Source: Nitrospirota bacterium (lineage in GTDB: Bacteria > Nitrospirota > UBA9217). Taken from it: a DNA stretch of 64,000 bases. The position numbers and the translations under genes were made by a program. Below the pieces are notes generated by a model. The model saw nothing but the letters and a program-made list of their open reading frames with translations. It was not told the origin of the DNA and made no database searches. The stretch lies in assembly GCA_963754875.1 (NCBI GenBank), contig CAVWHO010000013.1, positions 1 through 64,000 of the forward strand, read 5' to 3'. Within the stretch, counting starts at the first letter, position 1. Each line of letters starts with the position of its first letter. Shown here piece by piece: positions 15,821-60,095 of the stretch.

Positions 15821-16603
15821 ATGACTCCTGCGCAAACACATATCCATACGTGCCCCAACTGCGGGCACCCCATAGAAGAAAACCGCTACGTCATGAGACC
15901 GGACGGGACGTTTCGCTGCGAACACTGCTATTTCAACGACACCTATCTCGAAGGAGTTGTCCATTTTATCGATACGGCGTACCTCGTGACCCTTGAGGCC
16001 TTCGTGAGCGCCATCGATGCGAGGGAACACGAGGTGGGGAACCATTCTCTCCGAGTCATGGAATACTCCCTTATCATCGCGAACGCCTGCGAGGTGCGGG
16101 GCCGGGACCTGGTCGACCTTTATTGCGGCGCGTTGCTTCACGACATCGGCAAGATCGGCGTGCCCGATGCGGTCCTTCTCAAGTCCGGTCCGCTGAATGC
16201 CGACGAGCAGGCCGTGATGCACAAACATCCCGAGATCGGCTACCACATCATCGGCCATATCGGCTATTTTGTGCGCGCAGCCGAGATCATCCGCAGCCAT
16301 CATGAACACTTCGACGGGTCCGGGTATCCGCGAGGACTCAAGGGTGAAACAATTCCCTACGGGGCGAGGGTCTTTGCCATGTCCGACGCCCTCGATGCGA
16401 TGACGGTGAAGCGCTCGTACCACGAGGCACGCTCCTTTGAGGAGACGATGGAGGAGATTATTAAAGCCTCCGGCAAAATCTACGATCCCTCAGTTGTTCA
16501 GGCGTCCCTCAAGGCTTCCGATGAGCTCAAGGAATACATCGGCAGGATTGTGATCAATGGGATGAACCAGGGGGACGGCACCTACCCGGTTCCTGAAGAA
16601 TGA
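15821..16603 (+). CDS. HD-GYP cyclic dinucleotide phosphodiesterase with N-terminal Zn-ribbon
   Basis: LHDIGK, HHEHFDGSGYP, DALDAMT; N-terminal CPNC...CEHC. Confidence 0.9.
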   Translation: MTPAQTHIHTCPNCGHPIEENRYVMRPDGTFRCEHCYFNDTYLEGVVHFIDTAYLVTLEAFVSAIDAREHEVGNHSLRVMEYSLIIANACEVRGRDLVDLYCGALLHDIGKIGVPDAVLLKSGPLNADEQAVMHKHPEIGYHIIGHIGYFVRAAEIIRSHHEHFDGSGYPRGLKGETIPYGARVFAMSDALDAMTVKRSYHEARSFEETMEEIIKASGKIYDPSVVQASLKASDELKEYIGRIVINGMNQGDGTYPVPEE

Positions 16604-16892: not shown

Positions 16893-17004
16893 GGCCCACA
16901 AACAAAAATCCTTCGTGAGAAGGTGAGGAAAGCGGCGAGTCTTTCCTGGGGGAGAAGGCCGAGCTGCCGAAGGAAAGAACCTTGGGTAAGCCCGGCTTTT
17001 TTTT
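16893..17004 (+). promoter_or_regulatory. Divergent GEMM-I (cyclic dinucleotide) riboswitch with terminator
   Basis: CCTTC-GTGA-GAAGG GNRA stem, GGAAAGC junction, GCCGAGCTGCCGAA 3' end, then GCCCGGC-TTTTTTT. TTGACA-17-TATAGA promoter at 16842-16870. Confidence 0.6.
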
Positions 17005-41394: not shown

Positions 41395-43116
41395 CTACCA
41401 GCTTTGCAAGCCGTGACATCCGGTAAGCCCGCCGGCGCTCGGGTTGCACGTCGTTCCCGTGAAGTTGACCGCGCTGTTGATTGTGGTCGAGGCCGTAGCT
41501 TCAGAGATCGGGGCGGTCAGCGAGGTGAAGTGCACCGCTGCAAGCATCGTCGTATCATGACAGACGGTACACGCGAGCCCTCTCATATCGCTATTATTGT
41601 GCTGGCCTGAGTAATAGCTGTTGTTCTCCGGAATGCCCGGGCCGGTACCCAGAACGTGGCATGCCGTACACTGAGTGTTGACGTTGATCGTGCCGGTCTG
41701 CCAGTCAGGCGTTGTCAGGCTGCCGTGGCAGCTCACATTGGAACAGGCCATCGTAGATGCGTTGTACGTTGCTGCTCCGGCTTTCGCATTGAACGTCGGG
41801 TCGAGGATCACGTCTACGACTCCGTTCTGGTGAAGCGTGGTGCCGGAGCCGGCCCCTAAATGGCAGGTTGAGCACGCTACCGTGTTGAGGCTCATATGAG
41901 GTGCATGGTTGCCGGCAACGTTCGGGAACACGGTGCCCGACGGCGGAATCCCGTGACAGGTCCCGCAGGTCGGTGTCGCGTGGCAGAGCGTGCTGTTGAA
42001 GCAGCCGGGAGCGGTCCCTGCTGCAGCCGGCGGCGACGGCGGTGCAATCGGCGAGTTCGCGCCGTTCGTATGGCAAAGCGCGCAGACCGAGGCATTGCCG
42101 GTGTCAGTGGTGGTGTGGGTATAGGAACCCGTTATCCATGAAGTTGGGTGCGGCCCGCTTCCCCCGTGACAGGTGAAGCAAGACGTCTGTGCGGCACCAC
42201 CTGAAAAATCAGAGCCGTGGCAGGTTTCGCACAGTGCGAATCCGCCTGTCGACGTGGGTGCCGATTTTGCGGCAACGCCATGCTGCGTCGGATCGGACCA
42301 TCCTGCCGGGTGCCCAACTTGTGCATGACAGAGGGTGCTGTTGAAGCAGCCCGGAGCGGTCCCTGCTGCAGCCGGCGGCGACGGCGGCGCAATCGGCGAA
42401 TTGGCGCCGTTCGTATGGCAAAGCGCGCAGACCGAGGCATTGCCGGTGTCAGTGGTGGTGTGGGTATAGGGACCCGTTATCCATGAAGTTGGGTGCGGCC
42501 CGCTCCCCCCGTGGCAGGTGAAGCAAGACGTTTGTGCGGCACCACCTGAGAAATCAGAGCCGTGGCAGGTTTGGCATAGCGCGAATCCGCCTGTCGATGT
42601 CGGTGCTGCTTTGGCAGAAACGCCATGCTGCGACGGATCGGACCATCCTGCCGGGTGCCCAACTTGTGCATGACAGAGGGTGCTGTTGAAGCAGCCCGGA
42701 GCGGTCCCTGCTGCAGCCGGCAGCGACGGCGGCGCAATCGGCGAATTGGCGCCGTTCGTATGACAAAGCGCGCAGACCGAGGCATTGCCGGTGTCAGTGG
42801 TGGTGTGGGTATAGGAACCTGTTATCCATGAAGTTGGGTGCGGTGCACTCCCACCATGGCAGGACTTGCATGCTACAGCCGAGATGCCACCGGAAAAATC
42901 ATCAGCGTGGCACTCCTGGCAAACTGCAAAGCCATTGGCTTGCGTTTTCGCCGCTGCACCGTGGACAGCCGGCGAGGACCAACCCGCTGTATGCTGACCG
43001 GTATCAGGATTAAATGACGATAACGCTTGTTTATTTGATGAACTACATCCAATGAAGAGTGCGACTGCGCAAAACAGACCCAATACCAGGACCACCCGTT
43101 CCATTTTCTTTCTCAT
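41395..43116 (-). CDS. Multiheme c-type cytochrome lipoprotein with three 115-aa repeats and a CxxxxCH/CxxCH C-terminal domain
   Basis: Lipobox FIGC; 13 CxxCH plus 3 CX5CH (CFNSTLCH), 1 CX4CH and 1 CX9CH; 345-bp DNA repeat period. Confidence 0.9.
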   Translation of the reverse strand: MRKKMERVVLVLGLFCAVALFIGCSSSNKQALSSFNPDTGQHTAGWSSPAVHGAAAKTQANGFAVCQECHADDFSGGISAVACKSCHGGSAPHPTSWITGSYTHTTTDTGNASVCALCHTNGANSPIAPPSLPAAAGTAPGCFNSTLCHAQVGHPAGWSDPSQHGVSAKAAPTSTGGFALCQTCHGSDFSGGAAQTSCFTCHGGSGPHPTSWITGPYTHTTTDTGNASVCALCHTNGANSPIAPPSPPAAAGTAPGCFNSTLCHAQVGHPAGWSDPTQHGVAAKSAPTSTGGFALCETCHGSDFSGGAAQTSCFTCHGGSGPHPTSWITGSYTHTTTDTGNASVCALCHTNGANSPIAPPSPPAAAGTAPGCFNSTLCHATPTCGTCHGIPPSGTVFPNVAGNHAPHMSLNTVACSTCHLGAGSGTTLHQNGVVDVILDPTFNAKAGAATYNASTMACSNVSCHGSLTTPDWQTGTINVNTQCTACHVLGTGPGIPENNSYYSGQHNNSDMRGLACTVCHDTTMLAAVHFTSLTAPISEATASTTINSAVNFTGTTCNPSAGGLTGCHGLQSW

Positions 43117-43534
43117 TGAGCACTTCCCCCGTGTTGTTAAAGTAGTACTAAAGTAAAGACAATATTTGTCCCGATTTCCCGTCATGCTAACGCGGCATAA
43201 TCGCGCCTGTCAACGTCTAATTATAATTTTATTGTGCATGCAGTATGCAATCATGTTTTTCAACATGCAGAGTAATAATTTGACGAGAGAGACGGTGCCC
43301 TCAGCTTTGCAGCCATAAAAAGACGGAGCTCGTTATGTTTCACAGCTGTCAGCTCACAACGTAATGTTGATTTTAACAAGCGTTCCTCAGCCGTCACTCC
43401 ATGCAGATAGCATGATTGCATTGCTTTTCCTGTCATGAAACGTATTCACACAGTCGTCGCACGATCTGCCTCTCAACGACTGAATGTCAGCACTCGTTGT
43501 ACGGCGACTGTCCTTTTAACTTGTCTCAGCCACT

Positions 43535-44014
43535 TCACGGGTTTTGTGTGGTGGTCCCGGCAGTTCCTACTGCTGCGTGGCAAAGAGTATTGTTGTAGCA
43601 GCCGGGGCCGGCGCTTAAAACCGAGACGGACGGCGAGGGTTGAAGGGGAGAATTCGAGCCGTCTGCATGGCATTCCGCACAGACCGCGGCATTGTTCGTA
43701 TCAGTGTCCCCATGGTTCCAAGGCGCGCGGGGATGCGGCGCGTTAACACCATGGCAATTATAAAAGCAGGATACCGCGGAGGTTCCGCCAGCGAAATCAA
43801 CACCATGGCACTCCTGGCAGGAAGCAAAACCGCCTGCTTGAGATTTTGCGACTGCACCGTGCGCGCTCGGATCGGAAAAGCCTGCAACATGATTGCCTGT
43901 GTCAGGATTTAATGTTGATACTGCCATGGGGTTCGGCGAGCTGCATCCGGAAAAGATGATCAAGGCACCGAGCAATCCGATTAACCAAAAAGACGCTTCT
44001 ATTTTTCTAGCCAT
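43535..44014 (-). CDS. Small multiheme cytochrome lipoprotein, single-unit paralog of the downstream gene
   Basis: Lipobox FSGC; CQECH, CFYNCH, CAECH, CYNNTLCH. Confidence 0.85.
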   Translation of the reverse strand: MARKIEASFWLIGLLGALIIFSGCSSPNPMAVSTLNPDTGNHVAGFSDPSAHGAVAKSQAGGFASCQECHGVDFAGGTSAVSCFYNCHGVNAPHPRAPWNHGDTDTNNAAVCAECHADGSNSPLQPSPSVSVLSAGPGCYNNTLCHAAVGTAGTTTQNP

Positions 44015-44060
44015 GAATTTTTCCCCCTCAGTCGCAGAATATTGGCGTTTACCCCGTTAT

Positions 44061-55831: not shown

Positions 55832-55865
55832 AAAAAAAAGGGACCTGTTGAGAACAGGTCCCTTT
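55832..55865 (-). terminator. Intrinsic terminator of the PgcA-like gene
   Basis: AAAGGGACCTGTT-GAG-AACAGGTCCCTTT with an A8 tract on the + strand. Confidence 0.8.
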
Positions 55866-55902
55866 CATCTTTATATCATTTCACGTCGGCTGAAACGTTC
55901 CG

Positions 55903-57582
55903 TCAGGGAAGGGTAGCCAGGAAATTAGCATAATCCTGTGCAGTCGTCCCGGATGCCAACGAGGCCCCCTTGCTGACCATCGAATTGACTGTGGACAGCC
56001 ACGTGGTCGCCGTCCTGCCCGTGACTGTGTATCCGCCTGACTTGAGAACGGTAGTGTTCACAGTGAGACCGTGGCACATAGTGCAGGACGATGTTACCTG
56101 GGCCAGCGTAAGCGTCGGCGTCGGCGGCGTATAGGTGCAGGACTGCGAGAGGAGCGGCGTCCCGGCGCAGCCGGCTGGTGACGATGTCAGGAGGTTCCTT
56201 GTCTGCGTGCTGTTTGACTGGCAAGCACCCCATGCACTATAGGTGTAGGTGCATGCCGGCGGGACATAGGTGCAGGCTTGCGACGTGACCGGCGTTCCCG
56301 TGCAGCCTGCCGGTGTCGTGGTCAGCACGTTTCTGGTTTGCGTGTTGTTCGACTGGCAGGCGCCCCAGACGTCATAGGTGTACGTGCAGGCCCCAGGCGC
56401 AGGCGGTACATAGGTGCAGGCTTGCGACGTGACCGGTGTCCCCGTGCAGCCTGTCGGCGTCGTGGTCAGCACGTTTCTGGTTTGCGTGTTGTTCGACTGG
56501 CAGGCACCCCAGACGTCATAGGTGTACGTGCAGGCCCCAGGCGCAGGCGGCACATAGGTGCAGGACTGTGACACGACGGGTGTACCGGTGCAACCTGACG
56601 GCGATGTCGTCAGCACGTTTCTCGTCTGTGTGTTATCCGACTGGCAGGCGCCCCAAACATCATACGTATAGGTGCAGGCCACGGGCGTTGGAGTGGGCGT
56701 TGGAGTCGACGATAAAGCCGAAGCGATGGCTTGGATCTGGGCGGTCGTGAGCTTGGAGAGGAAGCTCATAGTGCCCACACTTTGAATCGCAGACTGTATC
56801 TGGGCTGCCGTCACACCTAACTTACTGCTTGTGGCAAGAGGTCCGTGGCAGGAACTGCAGTTAGTCACATAGAGTGCTGCCCCATTCACCTGTCCCGGCT
56901 GGGGCATGTTCCCGTTGTAGAAGGTCCCGGAGTTGATGTCATTGATCGGGGCAGTAAAGATCACCGCCCCGGTCTCTTTATTCGTGACGATGATCATGCC
57001 GTTTGATACGGTGATCTTCACGTCGTCGAACATGGCGTCAAGCCCGGTGTGGTCGGCTTCATAATCGTCGTTGACCGGGTCCTTGGTCGTCCCGTACAAG
57101 GAAAAAAGCGGCGTAAGTTTCTGCCGCAGACTGGCTATGGCTGTCGACCGGTGGGATTCTATGGACTCGTATAAAGCCGGGTCCGGATTTGCAGGGAGTG
57201 TTGAGGGGTCCCCATCGATTGCTGCGGCGAAAGCCGCATTTGAGAACGGGTTTATGTTCGCCGTACCCGGCCCTAAGGTAAATGAATACAACTGGTTCGT
57301 GCCGCTGCTGTCCGTCCACGTAACCGTGAGCACAAAGGGCGGTGTAAGCCCGCTTACGTTGATTGAGAACGATCCGTTGGCTGCCGACGTGGTCGTCCTG
57401 ACCCGCGGCGGAACCGACGCATCTGTCAGGGTAACAGTCCCGACTACGGGCGCCCCTGAGGCGGCTACGCCCTTTACCGACTGCGCCGGGCTCGGCGTAA
57501 TGTTGCTGACGCCGCAAGCGGCGAGCAGGACGCTTAATGCTACTGCGCCTGCCATGAGAATAGTGTCCATTTTTTTCTTCAT
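55903..57582 (-). CDS. PgcA-like lipoprotein c-type cytochrome with four TSP1-like Cys repeats
   Basis: Lipobox LAAC; GVAASGAPVVGTVTL beta domain; CSSCH; PTPTPTP; four CTYTYxxWGACQSxxTQTR...GC.GTP...C units; C-terminal CTMCH. Confidence 0.85.
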   Translation of the reverse strand: MKKKMDTILMAGAVALSVLLAACGVSNITPSPAQSVKGVAASGAPVVGTVTLTDASVPPRVRTTTSAANGSFSINVSGLTPPFVLTVTWTDSSGTNQLYSFTLGPGTANINPFSNAAFAAAIDGDPSTLPANPDPALYESIESHRSTAIASLRQKLTPLFSLYGTTKDPVNDDYEADHTGLDAMFDDVKITVSNGMIIVTNKETGAVIFTAPINDINSGTFYNGNMPQPGQVNGAALYVTNCSSCHGPLATSSKLGVTAAQIQSAIQSVGTMSFLSKLTTAQIQAIASALSSTPTPTPTPVACTYTYDVWGACQSDNTQTRNVLTTSPSGCTGTPVVSQSCTYVPPAPGACTYTYDVWGACQSNNTQTRNVLTTTPTGCTGTPVTSQACTYVPPAPGACTYTYDVWGACQSNNTQTRNVLTTTPAGCTGTPVTSQACTYVPPACTYTYSAWGACQSNSTQTRNLLTSSPAGCAGTPLLSQSCTYTPPTPTLTLAQVTSSCTMCHGLTVNTTVLKSGGYTVTGRTATTWLSTVNSMVSKGASLASGTTAQDYANFLATLP

Positions 57583-57830
57583 ATTTCCCTCTCTTTTGTA
57601 AATTTGGCTCTTTGAGTCTTTCGGTCAAGGATACTGCTGCTTCTGAATTGCAATCCTTAATTCTACCCGGCTTCGGTAACAAACACTGGAATGCAGCAAT
57701 TCTTGACGCATTCTTTAGTCTGCAGCTCAGAGATAGCGCCTAGGCAGGTGCAAAGAAAAAAATCCCTTCGATTGCTGCTATGGCCTGCATCACCCCCTCC
57801 TGCGCCCTTCTCTGAGAAGTACCAGGAACG

Positions 57831-57944
57831 AAAAAAAGCCGGGCGCCTCATATCGAAAGATATTTCGGCAGCCCGGCTGTCTCAAGGAGATCCTGAAGGC
57901 TTTCCGCCCCATCCTCGCGGATGGTTGAGTATTGTCGTCTATCT
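57831..57944 (-). promoter_or_regulatory. GEMM-Ib riboswitch (3',3'-cGAMP-type) with terminator
   Basis: GACAATACTCAACCATCC-GCGA-GGATGGGGCGGAAAGCC...GAGACAGCCGGGCTGCCGAAATATC, then GCCCGGC-T7; closely follows the Geobacter GEMM layout. Confidence 0.9.
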
Positions 57945-58114
57945 GGTACTATGGAATTCGAGCAGAAAAAAATTACGCCATGCGCCTGCAAAAACAAAAT
58001 GCCGGATATTTCACAACTAATGAAGAAATGTCGTCCGTCGCGATTACGCTGATCCCGTGCCGGAAGCATGAAGGTTTGTTTCGCAACTTTGCATCCTCAT
58101 TGGTTGATGTCTAT

Positions 58115-58131
58115 AGCAAATGGAATGCCAG
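58115..58131 (-). promoter_or_regulatory. Sigma54 promoter upstream of the GEMM riboswitch
   Basis: CTGGCATTCCATTTGCT with correct GG-N10-GC spacing. Confidence 0.7.
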
Positions 58132-58886
58132 AAATTGCAAATTTTTGTTATCTTATTGATTTATGAAAACAATCTCGATTTTGTCGGCACGTTTCACCAT
58201 CGCGTGAATTTTGCAAAGTGTCGGGTTTTTCCTACGGTAAAAAATGACGAATAGAAACAGTGATGTCGTTCAAATAATAAAAGCCCTGCAATAATGCTGT
58301 ATTATAGTCAGCCAATTCGTAAAACAGTGCAGAGCTTTTTCGCGCATAGAGAATTGAAAGAGAGCTCTTCCGCGCACAAAGAATTGCGGACGGTTTGATA
58401 GTGCTGCTGTAAAGGTAAAATAAGATACTTTTGGAATCATTTCGTCATTTTTCTCTGCCATATCAGCAGCGATCATTGCGGTCCTGCTGTCCGGTTTACT
58501 CATAACAGGTTCGAATGATGCCGTATACGTTGAACTATTCCCAAATAGTACAAGCAGGCTTAGCTGATAAAGTATCAACGAACTTTTCCCCGTGCTGATC
58601 ATAACGTTTGGCTATAGGAGCTTGTTGACAGGTTCGAGGGGCGGCGATAAAATTTTATCAAGCTTGAAGTCATTGATGAGCTGTGAAAGCTTATTACGAG
58701 GACATGAGCCAGGTCGCTTAAAAAATACTTCCACAGGCGTCGCTCTCGGAGTTCTCGACCAGAGTCATTCTGCACAATAAGCCCAGCGCAAAAGGGCGTG
58801 GAGGCCTTCGGTCCTTTTGTAATTGTGGCTTTACCAAGGAATGCAGATTTGTAAATTGTAGGCATTTGAAAAGGAGGCACCATTCC

Positions 58887-60095
58887 ATGAAGAAATTCGG
58901 TACAGATGTCCTGATACTCGCACTGTCGGCCGCATTTGTTTTCTCCCTGGCGAGTTGCGGCCGCAGTAACAGCAGCACTAGCACTAGCAGTATAACGCCG
59001 GTCAGTACCAACGCTCAGGCTGCGCAAGCGGCCACTGCCAGCGTCAAAACCGCCCGTAACGTTATGGTCATCGGCTCAGCGCTTGCGATGATAACTTCAG
59101 CGGCGACGAGCAGCGGCGTAGGATTGCCCCTTGCGCCGGCCATCAATGCCCCTTCGGGCACGACGAATGCCACAGCATTGGCCAGGTTTTCAACAACGTT
59201 CTCTCCAACCCTCAGGAGGACGATGGACGTTCGGGCTGCTGCATTGACGTTTCCCGTCACGATCGACTGTGCCACGAATACGACAGTAACAGGGGGCAGC
59301 ACAGCGACGCCGGACAGTGTCACGATTGTCGGGAGCGGCATCGGCCCGTTTACCGTAACGTTTAACGCGTGCAGGGAGGGGGTGGCGCAAGTGGACGGCG
59401 TCGTGACCGCGACGCTCACCGGGGTCATCGCTGCCACCTTGACGCTTGGAACAGACACCGCCCCGCTTACCGTGACCGAGTACGCAGGGGCCTCGTCTTC
59501 GTCTGTCATCGACGTTATTAAAACCACGTCGAACATATCGTTCAGTCAGTTGGGTGTGACCGACACGTTTGTGACGACGGGATCGTTCGAGAACTGGGAT
59601 TACGTGGCACATGGACACGAAAAGCAGGTCATGACCAATCTTATAATTGCGGTGACAACTGGGGTCGCAACGGTCGGCGGCGCAAACTATACGGCCGATA
59701 CGTTTACCGTGAACGGCCCTTCGACCGGTACAGTCTACCTGTCGGATACGGACAGTACGATAAACTATACGGAATCGGACAGTTATTCGAATTTTGTGAT
59801 CGTGGATAAATCACCTGCTGCAGGTTCGCCTGATTTCGACTATCTCACCATGACCGGCGTCTTCAGCATCTCCACCACGCCGGCAGACAAGTGTATCGAC
59901 GGCACATTCAGCATCGCAACAAACACTGATGTGAAGATCGACAATGCTACGGAGACGATAGTGGAGGGACAGCTCGCGATCAACGCGGCTGCAGTGGCGG
60001 TATATAATGCCGACGGCAGCCTGACGGTCACCGTGAACGGAGGCACGCCGGCGACGTTTTCGGAAGCGGAATTGGCGGCATTATGCTCATTGTGA
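58887..60095 (+). CDS. Thr-rich beta-strand surface lipoprotein, unknown function
   Basis: Lipobox LASC, Ser/Thr linker, four additional Cys; TTGACA-17-TAAAAT promoter at 58625-58653. Confidence 0.75.
   Translation: MKKFGTDVLILALSAAFVFSLASCGRSNSSTSTSSITPVSTNAQAAQAATASVKTARNVMVIGSALAMITSAATSSGVGLPLAPAINAPSGTTNATALARFSTTFSPTLRRTMDVRAAALTFPVTIDCATNTTVTGGSTATPDSVTIVGSGIGPFTVTFNACREGVAQVDGVVTATLTGVIAATLTLGTDTAPLTVTEYAGASSSSVIDVIKTTSNISFSQLGVTDTFVTTGSFENWDYVAHGHEKQVMTNLIIAVTTGVATVGGANYTADTFTVNGPSTGTVYLSDTDSTINYTESDSYSNFVIVDKSPAAGSPDFDYLTMTGVFSISTTPADKCIDGTFSIATNTDVKIDNATETIVEGQLAINAAAVAVYNADGSLTVTVNGGTPATFSEAELAALCSL

Follow-up and report, generated by a model that had tools for sequence, protein, structure and literature searches.

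A putative sigma54 promoter and a GEMM-Ib riboswitch likely to sense cGAMP precede a PgcA-family cytochrome gene in a Nitrospirota genome

Organization of the locus

A stretch of 64,000 nucleotides from a Nitrospirota bacterium (assembly GCA_963754875.1, contig CAVWHO010000013.1, positions 1 to 64,000), called here the window, carries on its minus strand all parts of a pgcA-like unit: a sigma54-type site, a GEMM-I aptamer, a terminator and an open reading frame (ORF) for a lipoprotein cytochrome (Table 1). The locus is a one-gene unit. We suggest, from sequence comparison and with some reserve, that a sigma54 promoter and a GEMM-Ib ON switch sensing cGAMP (3',3'-cyclic GMP-AMP) probably control a PgcA-family lipoprotein cytochrome in this Nitrospirota host. 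Riboswitch control of pgcA is itself already established in Geobacter sulfurreducens, where the GEMM-Ib riboswitch GSUR3008 (Gs1761) is described as controlling pgcA (GSU1761), with GacA as the synthase (PMC6456294); a preliminary description of the window, made from its letters, had rightly named Geobacter as the known case.

Table 1. Features of the pgcA-like unit (positions in the window)
Feature	Position	Strand	Basis or remark
Sigma54-type -24/-12 site	58115-58131	-	GG 58129-58128, GC 58117-58116, ten bases between; predicted start near 58104
Predicted 5' leader ahead of aptamer, ~165 nt	57941-58104	-	length varies among relatives
GEMM-I aptamer, GEMM-Ib type	57864-57940	-	Rfam RF01051, 37.5 bits (cut-off 35)
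Aptamer key bases	G8 57936; A14 (G20 equivalent) 57930; C15 57929; G40 57904; A41 57903; ligand-pairing C75 equivalent 57868	-	
Intrinsic terminator overlapping aptamer 3' strand	57831-57877	-	stem 57877-57838, U7 at 57837-57831; minimum free energy fold
Post-terminator leader, 248 nt, purine-rich ribosome-binding site	57583-57830	-	sequence
ORF, 559 aa, PgcA homolog	55903-57582	-	lipobox Cys23; CxxCH at residues 242 and 500
Signal peptide and lipobox, residues 1-23	57514-57582	-	translation; Cys23
PgcA non-haem (secretion) domain, residues 31-227	56902-57492	-	phmmer E 1.1e-46 to 9I0D; Foldseek TM 0.91; VIA Z 28-31
Haem domain 1, residues 230-293	56704-56895	-	CxxCH 242-246; E 7.1e-14 to 8QJ6; VIA Z 10.2
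Short Pro/Thr linker, ~four PT units	56680-56703	-	low model confidence (pLDDT) at 295-300
Four Cys-rich beta repeats (predicted), 4 Cys each, ~45 aa, residues 303-484 (starts 303, 351, 399, 444)	56131-56676	-	Pro-rich hinges between
C-terminal haem domain 2	55906-56124	-	CxxCH 500-504; candidate distal Met535
Bidirectional terminator-like hairpin	55836-55866	both	between the pgcA-like gene and a convergent selD-yedF-like pair

Aptamer and terminator

The only Rfam family found in the whole window is c-di-GMP-I, at the place where the preliminary description had put a GEMM-I aptamer with J1/2 reading CAAUAC, and the covariance search thus agrees with it. A match to RF03167 (E 1.9e-7) lies below that family's cut-off. 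The bases that mark the GEMM-Ib subclass are in place: A57930 at the G20 position, the intercalating A57903 and the Watson-Crick C57868. In the numbering of the Gs1761 cGAMP structure (PMC6274999), with G8 set at 57936, A14 is the G20 equivalent (PMC6140456), and all 13 published positions of the Gs1761 aptamer, A14 included, are matched. Nine pocket bases (G8, A9, A11, A12, A14, C15, G40, A41, A42) stand at the published spacing; U73, G74, C75 and C76 match at an offset of +1, with one extra base in P3. The aptamer therefore likely senses cGAMP, as far as its sequence can tell.

Together with the 30 nt downstream, the aptamer folds with a minimum free energy (MFE) of -46.1 kcal/mol (z -4.07), and none of 200 shuffles was as stable. 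The overlapping terminator of the preliminary description reappears in this MFE fold as a U7-tailed hairpin, predicted to pair the aptamer 3' strand including the ligand-pairing C57868. A simple terminator scan did not list it; a matching hairpin is found in six of seven related aptamer copies, the seventh of which, having no U5 tract, was not folded. The predicted layout is that of an ON switch, in which the terminator excludes the aptamer and sequesters C57868 in the OFF state. The same competition, in which the terminator takes up the ligand-pairing C, is described for the pilM cGAMP ON switch of G. metallireducens (PMC9262584), whereas target gene and host are different here and long leaders lie on both sides. 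No further Rfam family reached threshold in the post-terminator leader.

With Gs1761/pgcA the locus shares the aptamer pocket, the terminator-based ON layout, the target gene family and a Ser-type GGDEF protein in the genome. It differs in its Nitrospirota host, in the strong sigma54 site upstream, in the architecture of the synthase candidate (GAF-GGEEF here, Rec-GGDEF in Geobacter) and in number, with one aptamer of the subtype in this genome as against 17 GEMM-I aptamers in G. sulfurreducens.

The sigma54-type site

The -24/-12 promoter that had been noticed upstream is there, though 190 nt from the aptamer and not adjacent to it. The sigma54 -24/-12 consensus motif was used for scoring, and the site carries GG-N10-GC within that consensus. 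The strict motif TGGCA-N6-TTGCW occurs 45 times genome-wide (0.005/kb), so that about 0.002 copies are expected per 350 nt. The genome has rpoN and, among 35 matches, about 26 near-full-length sigma54 activator domains. When at least 9 of 11 consensus bases within 350 nt upstream were required, a sigma54-like site was found at 8 of the 16 aptamer loci of the host's family described below (shuffles, 1.3%) and at 3 of 70 metagenome loci of the aptamer subtype; the distance from promoter to aptamer ranges from 37 to 278 nt (5 loci). We regard 58115-58131 as a putative, likely sigma54 promoter. A sigma70-like match inside the aptamer was rejected as being at chance level.

Binding of integration host factor (IHF) is reported at Geobacter pgcA (PMC7962754). 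Here, the 370 nt upstream contain no match to the IHF consensus of E. coli type. For a sigma54 promoter at Geobacter pgcA we found no statement in the literature, the predicted-RpoN-promoter table of PMC7962754 being outside the search.

Domains of the cytochrome

A lipoprotein cytochrome with two CxxCH motifs, resembling PgcA, had been proposed from the letters, and both parts of the proposal are borne out (Table 1). Of the 75 homologs in the alignment, at least 90% share the lipobox Cys23. The N-terminal domain had been called beta; such a domain is present, while the structure model gives it a mixed alpha/beta fold. Its Asp181 and Asp185 are kept and align with D208/D212, which are mutated in PDB 9I0D; a literature search on these two PgcA residues found no paper. 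Haem domain 1 resembles PgcA domains I and II (matches to 8QJ6 and 8QJG), with the distal Met272 aligned, and its haem is predicted to be ligated by His246/Met272, following the His/Met ligands given for domain I (PMC11520253). Over secretion domain and haem domain 1 the identity to PgcA is 44-52%.

Haem domain 2 has a single His, that of its CxxCH, so bis-His ligation within the domain is impossible. It is weakly SorB-like (2BLF_B, VIA Z 5.6, within the noise range). At least one CxxCH is present in 117 of 120 homologs, and the terminal one is nearly invariant in the 75 aligned. The structure model, built on an alignment of these 75 of the 120 homologs, has a mean predicted local distance difference test (pLDDT) of 82.3 and a predicted template modelling score (pTM) of 0.47. 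Among the homologs with a name are proteins of Nitrospirae bacterium GWC2_56_14 and GWD2_57_9 and one from the Anaeromyxobacteraceae; the names suggest that the host may be of class UBA9217.

PgcA is described as a haem-tethered redox string, whose haems hang on flexible (PT)x tethers and lie at distances of up to 18 nm (PMC11520253, PMC10570954, PMC5732950). Like PgcA (9I0D/9I0E, 8QJ6, 8QJG, 8QK0), the protein has a lipobox, the secretion domain, a His/Met monohaem domain of the domain I/II kind and haem beads that stand apart instead of forming a packed chain. Unlike PgcA, it has two haems instead of three, and a weakly SorB-like terminal domain stands where a bis-His, mineral-reducing domain III was not detected. 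The long unstructured PT/PA linkers of a redox string are likewise missing: about four PT units are present, and the spacer consists of four folded (predicted beta) Cys-rich modules. The protein may still work as a tethered string. As a PgcA-family lipoprotein cytochrome it likely passes electrons to acceptors outside the cell.

A stand-alone PgcA non-haem domain is encoded elsewhere in the genome (L058, G000 C2:80241-80924); it is haem-free, 253 aa long and 46% identical, and no riboswitch was found nearby.

The Cys-rich repeats between the haems

The preliminary description had noticed a PT repeat. It exists but had been overstated, being about four units long, and the four 4-Cys repeats that lie between the two haem domains had been overlooked; these alter how the protein would work. 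Pfam PTN_MK_C (PF01091) matches them in four stretches (E 2.3e-7, 31.5 bits, cut-off 25.3). In the structure model each repeat is made of short beta strands with pLDDT mostly 70-87, and the Pro-rich joints have low confidence. Foldseek gives a weak match to properdin (E 1.5e-3, probability 0.60, rmsd 20 A). We call the repeats midkine/thrombospondin-like, their fold and disulfide pairing being predicted.

Other searches with the repeats gave little. Pfam TSP_1 did not match them, a PDB sequence search returned E values of 0.46 and 0.65 at best (the latter for pleiotrophin), and the top 50 of VIA-align contained no chain of the thrombospondin type 1 repeat (TSR), though other domains filled those lists. 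Single-sequence AlphaFold reached pLDDT 43.8 and was unusable, and the best ESM Atlas score, 0.76, was uninformative. The TSR is characterised by a Trp ladder. The repeats resemble it (properdin), and the pleiotrophin/midkine C-terminal domain (PF01091), as small Cys-rich beta modules with WxxC followed by Arg and with the Pfam match over cut-off. They depart from the TSR in having one Trp (with Tyr three before), four Cys and no TSP_1 match, and in belonging to bacterial surface proteins.

By regular-expression counts, 112 of 120 homologs carry at least one repeat, the number varies from 0 to 10, and in 75 the repeats lie between haems. In a wider search the repeat was found in 1160 representative proteins (E<=0.001). 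Among the best 150 repeat-bearing representatives, 104 have neither CxxCH nor a PgcA domain; the domains in 34 repeat proteins that were scanned are mostly of the Ig, PKD, cohesin or lectin type, and a look-up of ten proteins gave one with the name of a Paceibacterota genome. By its occurrence in sequences, then, the repeat is a general surface module. A literature search found no repeat-bearing PgcA homologs, with Fig. S1 of PMC10570954 and Fig. 1C of PMC5732950 outside its reach.

In a tree of the N-terminal domain (29 rows) all repeat-bearing rows fall into one 17-row group (86/86, not strongly supported) inside a 19-row clade, which stands apart from ten repeat-free rows (99/99). The window copy groups with same-genus copies (95/93), and there is no support for the cassette having entered this genome very recently. 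As the tree has a midpoint root and no named Geobacter sequence, no donor is claimed.

Host and distribution of the cassette

That the host might not be a Geobacter had been suspected, and it is not: it belongs to Nitrospirota, not Geobacterales. GlyS of the window is 92%, 91%, 80% and 80% identical to GlyS of four same-genus genomes and 40% to that of one other family. The genome at 92% (G003), also Nitrospirota, has a syntenic cassette between selD and the same upstream gene as here. A Geobacterales host or a misbinned contig is ruled out by the GlyS identities of 91-92% to two same-genus genomes and by the selD synteny.

GEMM-I aptamers occur in 35 of 36 family genomes. This genome has seven over the cut-off and one weak match besides; position 20 is G in four of the seven and A in three. 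A 29-nt pattern of the aptamer subtype was found in 15 of 63 other family genomes and in 1 of 337 other Nitrospirota genomes, where the lone match has G at the key position; a reversed control gave none. The first 61 genomes yielded 21 pattern matches in 16 loci. Downstream of these lie ten PgcA-like genes, three genes for other exported cytochromes, two for other exported proteins and one contig end (assigned partly by eye), and the loci come from kin genomes and hence are not independent. Among 80 metagenome loci, fetched from at least 125, 61 have a downstream ORF; 14 of the products have the PgcA domain, 17 have CxxCH and 3 are PilM-like (by eye). In genomes G010 and G007 (L098-L115) the subtype is expanded to nine and five copies, often in tandem pairs, before many PgcA-like cytochrome genes.

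Candidate enzymes of cGAMP turnover

The genome search for Hypr GGDEF proteins that had been proposed gave a Ser-type GAF-GGDEF protein, present in 34 of 36 family genomes. Of 28 GGDEF matches in this genome most have the canonical Asp, and two whose active site can be recognised have Ser at the guanine-reading position, a replacement described as the Hypr signature (PMC6456294). One of them, a GAF-GGEEF protein on contig C16, has GacA (6D9M) as its best PDB match (E 9.8e-34; the runner-up has 7.1e-29), and at the signature position Ser aligns with Ser. The family count refers to its orthologs at E<=1e-132, which were not found in G012 and G032; Ser is present in all 30 loci that were read, this genome's included. 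In this assembly the gene is frameshifted near position 85075 of C16, and the 291-aa ORF after the frameshift retains the entire GGDEF domain. The other Ser-type protein (GGDDF; L033, G000 C21:96237-96908) seems to have been separated from a membrane/HAMP-like part that lies upstream.

Of 13 HD-GYP matches examined, ten have readable motifs and two of these read RxxQ, one in an intact 393-aa ORF (L126) and one with an internal stop. RxxQ/N in HD-GYP proteins is described as a mark of cGAMP preference (bioRxiv 10.1101/600031). From these motifs we propose the GAF-GGDEF protein as a candidate Hypr-like cGAMP synthase and L126 as a candidate cGAMP phosphodiesterase. By architecture and motif they can be likened to Myxococcus xanthus GacB (GAF and Ser-type GGDEF) and PmxA (RxxQ HD-GYP) of the same work, although the candidate phosphodiesterase lacks the membrane/HAMP part of PmxA.

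Electron-transfer partners in the genome

The genome holds an OmcS homolog, two MtrC/MtrF-like decahaem proteins, 16- and 26-haem proteins and cytochrome c maturation genes. Behind a G20-type GEMM-I aptamer (L002, G000 C8:407475-410295, minus strand) lie the gene for the OmcS homolog (E 9.8e-96 to 6EF8) and another six-haem gene, and a sigma54-like site precedes that aptamer by 23 nt; the gene run ends in the 26- and 16-haem cytochromes. This is possibly a nanowire operon under control of the c-di-GMP type in Nitrospirota. Another locus (L152, G000 C8:150493-160263, minus strand) has two tandem MtrC/MtrF-like decahaem lipoproteins, a gene that has no Pfam match and by eye resembles a porin gene, and two small genes for multihaem proteins; it is a candidate porin-cytochrome conduit.

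Proposed mechanism and alternatives

We hypothesize that the unit works as follows. An enhancer-binding activator would open the sigma54 promoter. Without ligand, the aptamer 3' strand, its ligand-pairing C included, would form the terminator; cGAMP made by the Ser-type GAF-GGDEF protein would stabilise the aptamer during transcription and permit read-through, and the RxxQ HD-GYP protein would clear the messenger. The product, lipid-anchored and exported via its PgcA secretion domain, would carry one haem near the cell and another at the far end of four disulfide-braced modules acting as a hinged spacer. A tunnelling range of ~15 A is cited in PgcA work (PMC11520253). Folded modules would hold haem 2 beyond that range unless the hinges fold, so that electrons would have to pass by fold-back at the Pro-rich hinges or between molecules.

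Several observations weigh against parts of this scheme. Half of the family loci (8 of 16) have no good sigma54 site. Ser alone does not make a Hypr enzyme: D-to-S mutation is reported to have abolished activity in four of five cases, and one mutant was still a diguanylate cyclase (PMC6456294). The same-genus genome G012 (90% complete) has riboswitch and gene and no synthase match at E<=1e-40, and most synthase-bearing family genomes are without this aptamer pattern. How the repeats fold and how their disulfides pair are predictions. The ligand is also open to dispute. The preliminary description had taken A at the G20 position to mean cGAMP sensing; the 13 matched positions uphold this, while A20 itself proves less exclusive than was assumed, for A20 aptamers can be bispecific and bind c-di-GMP via protonated A20, the natural aptamer Cbe 1-2 binds c-di-GMP tighter, and the cGAMP preference of Gs1761 was about threefold by isothermal titration calorimetry (all PMC6140456). 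A bispecific or c-di-GMP-driven ON switch, with A20 inherited along with the pgcA cassette and the gene following c-di-GMP, would also suit a genome in which most GGDEF proteins are canonical and four of seven GEMM-I aptamers have G20. We would nevertheless give it a modest chance, considering that the pocket is that of Gs1761, for which about 1200-fold cGAMP selectivity by in-line probing is reported, that Hypr-like and RxxQ enzymes co-occur with it, and that 65-68 of 75 bases are common with aptamers on metagenome contigs before a PT-linker PgcA gene (L184) and three PilM-like genes, a figure inflated by the choice of loci with the 29-nt pattern.

The cGAMP switch could also be real and its target have another task, as a surface adhesin, a redox sensor or a device for taking up electrons or exchanging them between cells, in which the repeats would be modules for binding. 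Domain III alone of PgcA is reported to bind and reduce Fe(III) oxide (PMC11520253), and here no equivalent was detected (no sequence match to 8QK0, no significant PDB sequence match for haem domain 2); the repeat occurs mostly in haem-free surface proteins, many with Ig, PKD, cohesin or lectin domains, and three of the 120 close homologs lack CxxCH, some of them possibly truncated. The closeness of secretion domain and haem 1 to PgcA, the retention of CxxCH in nearly all homologs and the OmcS- and MtrC-like cytochromes of the genome leave this a small chance. It is hardly probable, finally, that the circuit is decaying in this strain, with little cGAMP made and the gene mostly off. One extra base upstream of the GGDEF domain does split the Hypr-like gene in comparison with three aligned relatives, and the second RxxQ HD-GYP match has its internal stop. 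Yet in a set of 116 orthologs drawn from 400 kb of G001, 13 (~11%), some of them housekeeping genes, are likewise split by frame changes in this assembly, for which reason the frameshift is likely an assembly (indel) error, and split genes here should not be taken as pseudogenes without reads. The GGDEF domain survives whole in its ORF, and aptamer, terminator and cytochrome ORF are intact and near-identical to those of G003 (74 of 75 aptamer bases).

If the preferred reading of a cGAMP-controlled PgcA-family cytochrome is true, synthase and phosphodiesterase candidates, riboswitch and target in a second phylum would widen the range of cGAMP-controlled extracellular electron transfer beyond Geobacter, and the set would point to respiration of minerals or electrodes in Nitrospirota. 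Published descriptions of Hypr synthases place them in Deltaproteobacteria (PMC6456294; bioRxiv 10.1101/600031). Nitrospirota lineages are portrayed through sulfur and nitrogen metabolism in two surveys (PMC11033732, PMC10203281), in whose available text the words "extracellular electron" do not occur. Our literature searches found no paper on cGAMP, Hypr enzymes or riboswitches in Nitrospirota, on thrombospondin-type repeats with PgcA or Nitrospirota, or on sigma54 at pgcA, the supplements of the papers defining GEMM-Ib being outside the search. Natural variants with 0-10 folded spacers let reach and stiffness vary and so offer a direct test of the tethered-diffusion model of PgcA. Taken at its widest, a picture that we hold doubtful as a whole, one Nitrospirota family would be an unrecognised electroactive lineage with a complete Hypr-cGAMP circuit, and its PgcA proteins a new class gated by sigma54 and cGAMP, in which a tunable number of midkine/thrombospondin-like modules with disulfide braces forms a hinged boom that sets haem reach. 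The OmcS-type nanowire operon would stand under a G20 switch, so that two messengers would divide particle contact from wire building.

Neighbouring genes and other elements

Within the window, the minus-strand stretch 41395-44056 has a gene for a lipoprotein cytochrome with 13 haems and a CxxxxCH/CxxCH domain (TIGR01904), adjoined by an ORF for a 2-haem lipoprotein. Divergent from the pgcA-like unit lies a gene for a 400-aa lipoprotein (58866-60095, plus strand) with no Pfam or NCBIfam match and a 39% identical paralog on contig C10; it was not found beside the G003 cassette and is thus likely a later insert. A degenerate GEMM-I-like element at 16895-16971 (plus strand; 23.2 bits, below cut-off, E 0.048), followed by a U-tailed stretch, has an HD-GYP gene (16001-16495) on one side and, on the other, a gene that is CBS-like by eye. 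Elsewhere in the genome (L001, G000 C21:200191, minus strand), an ORF for what by eye is an IS200-like transposase separates a G20 GEMM-I aptamer from the lipoprotein gene that comes next.

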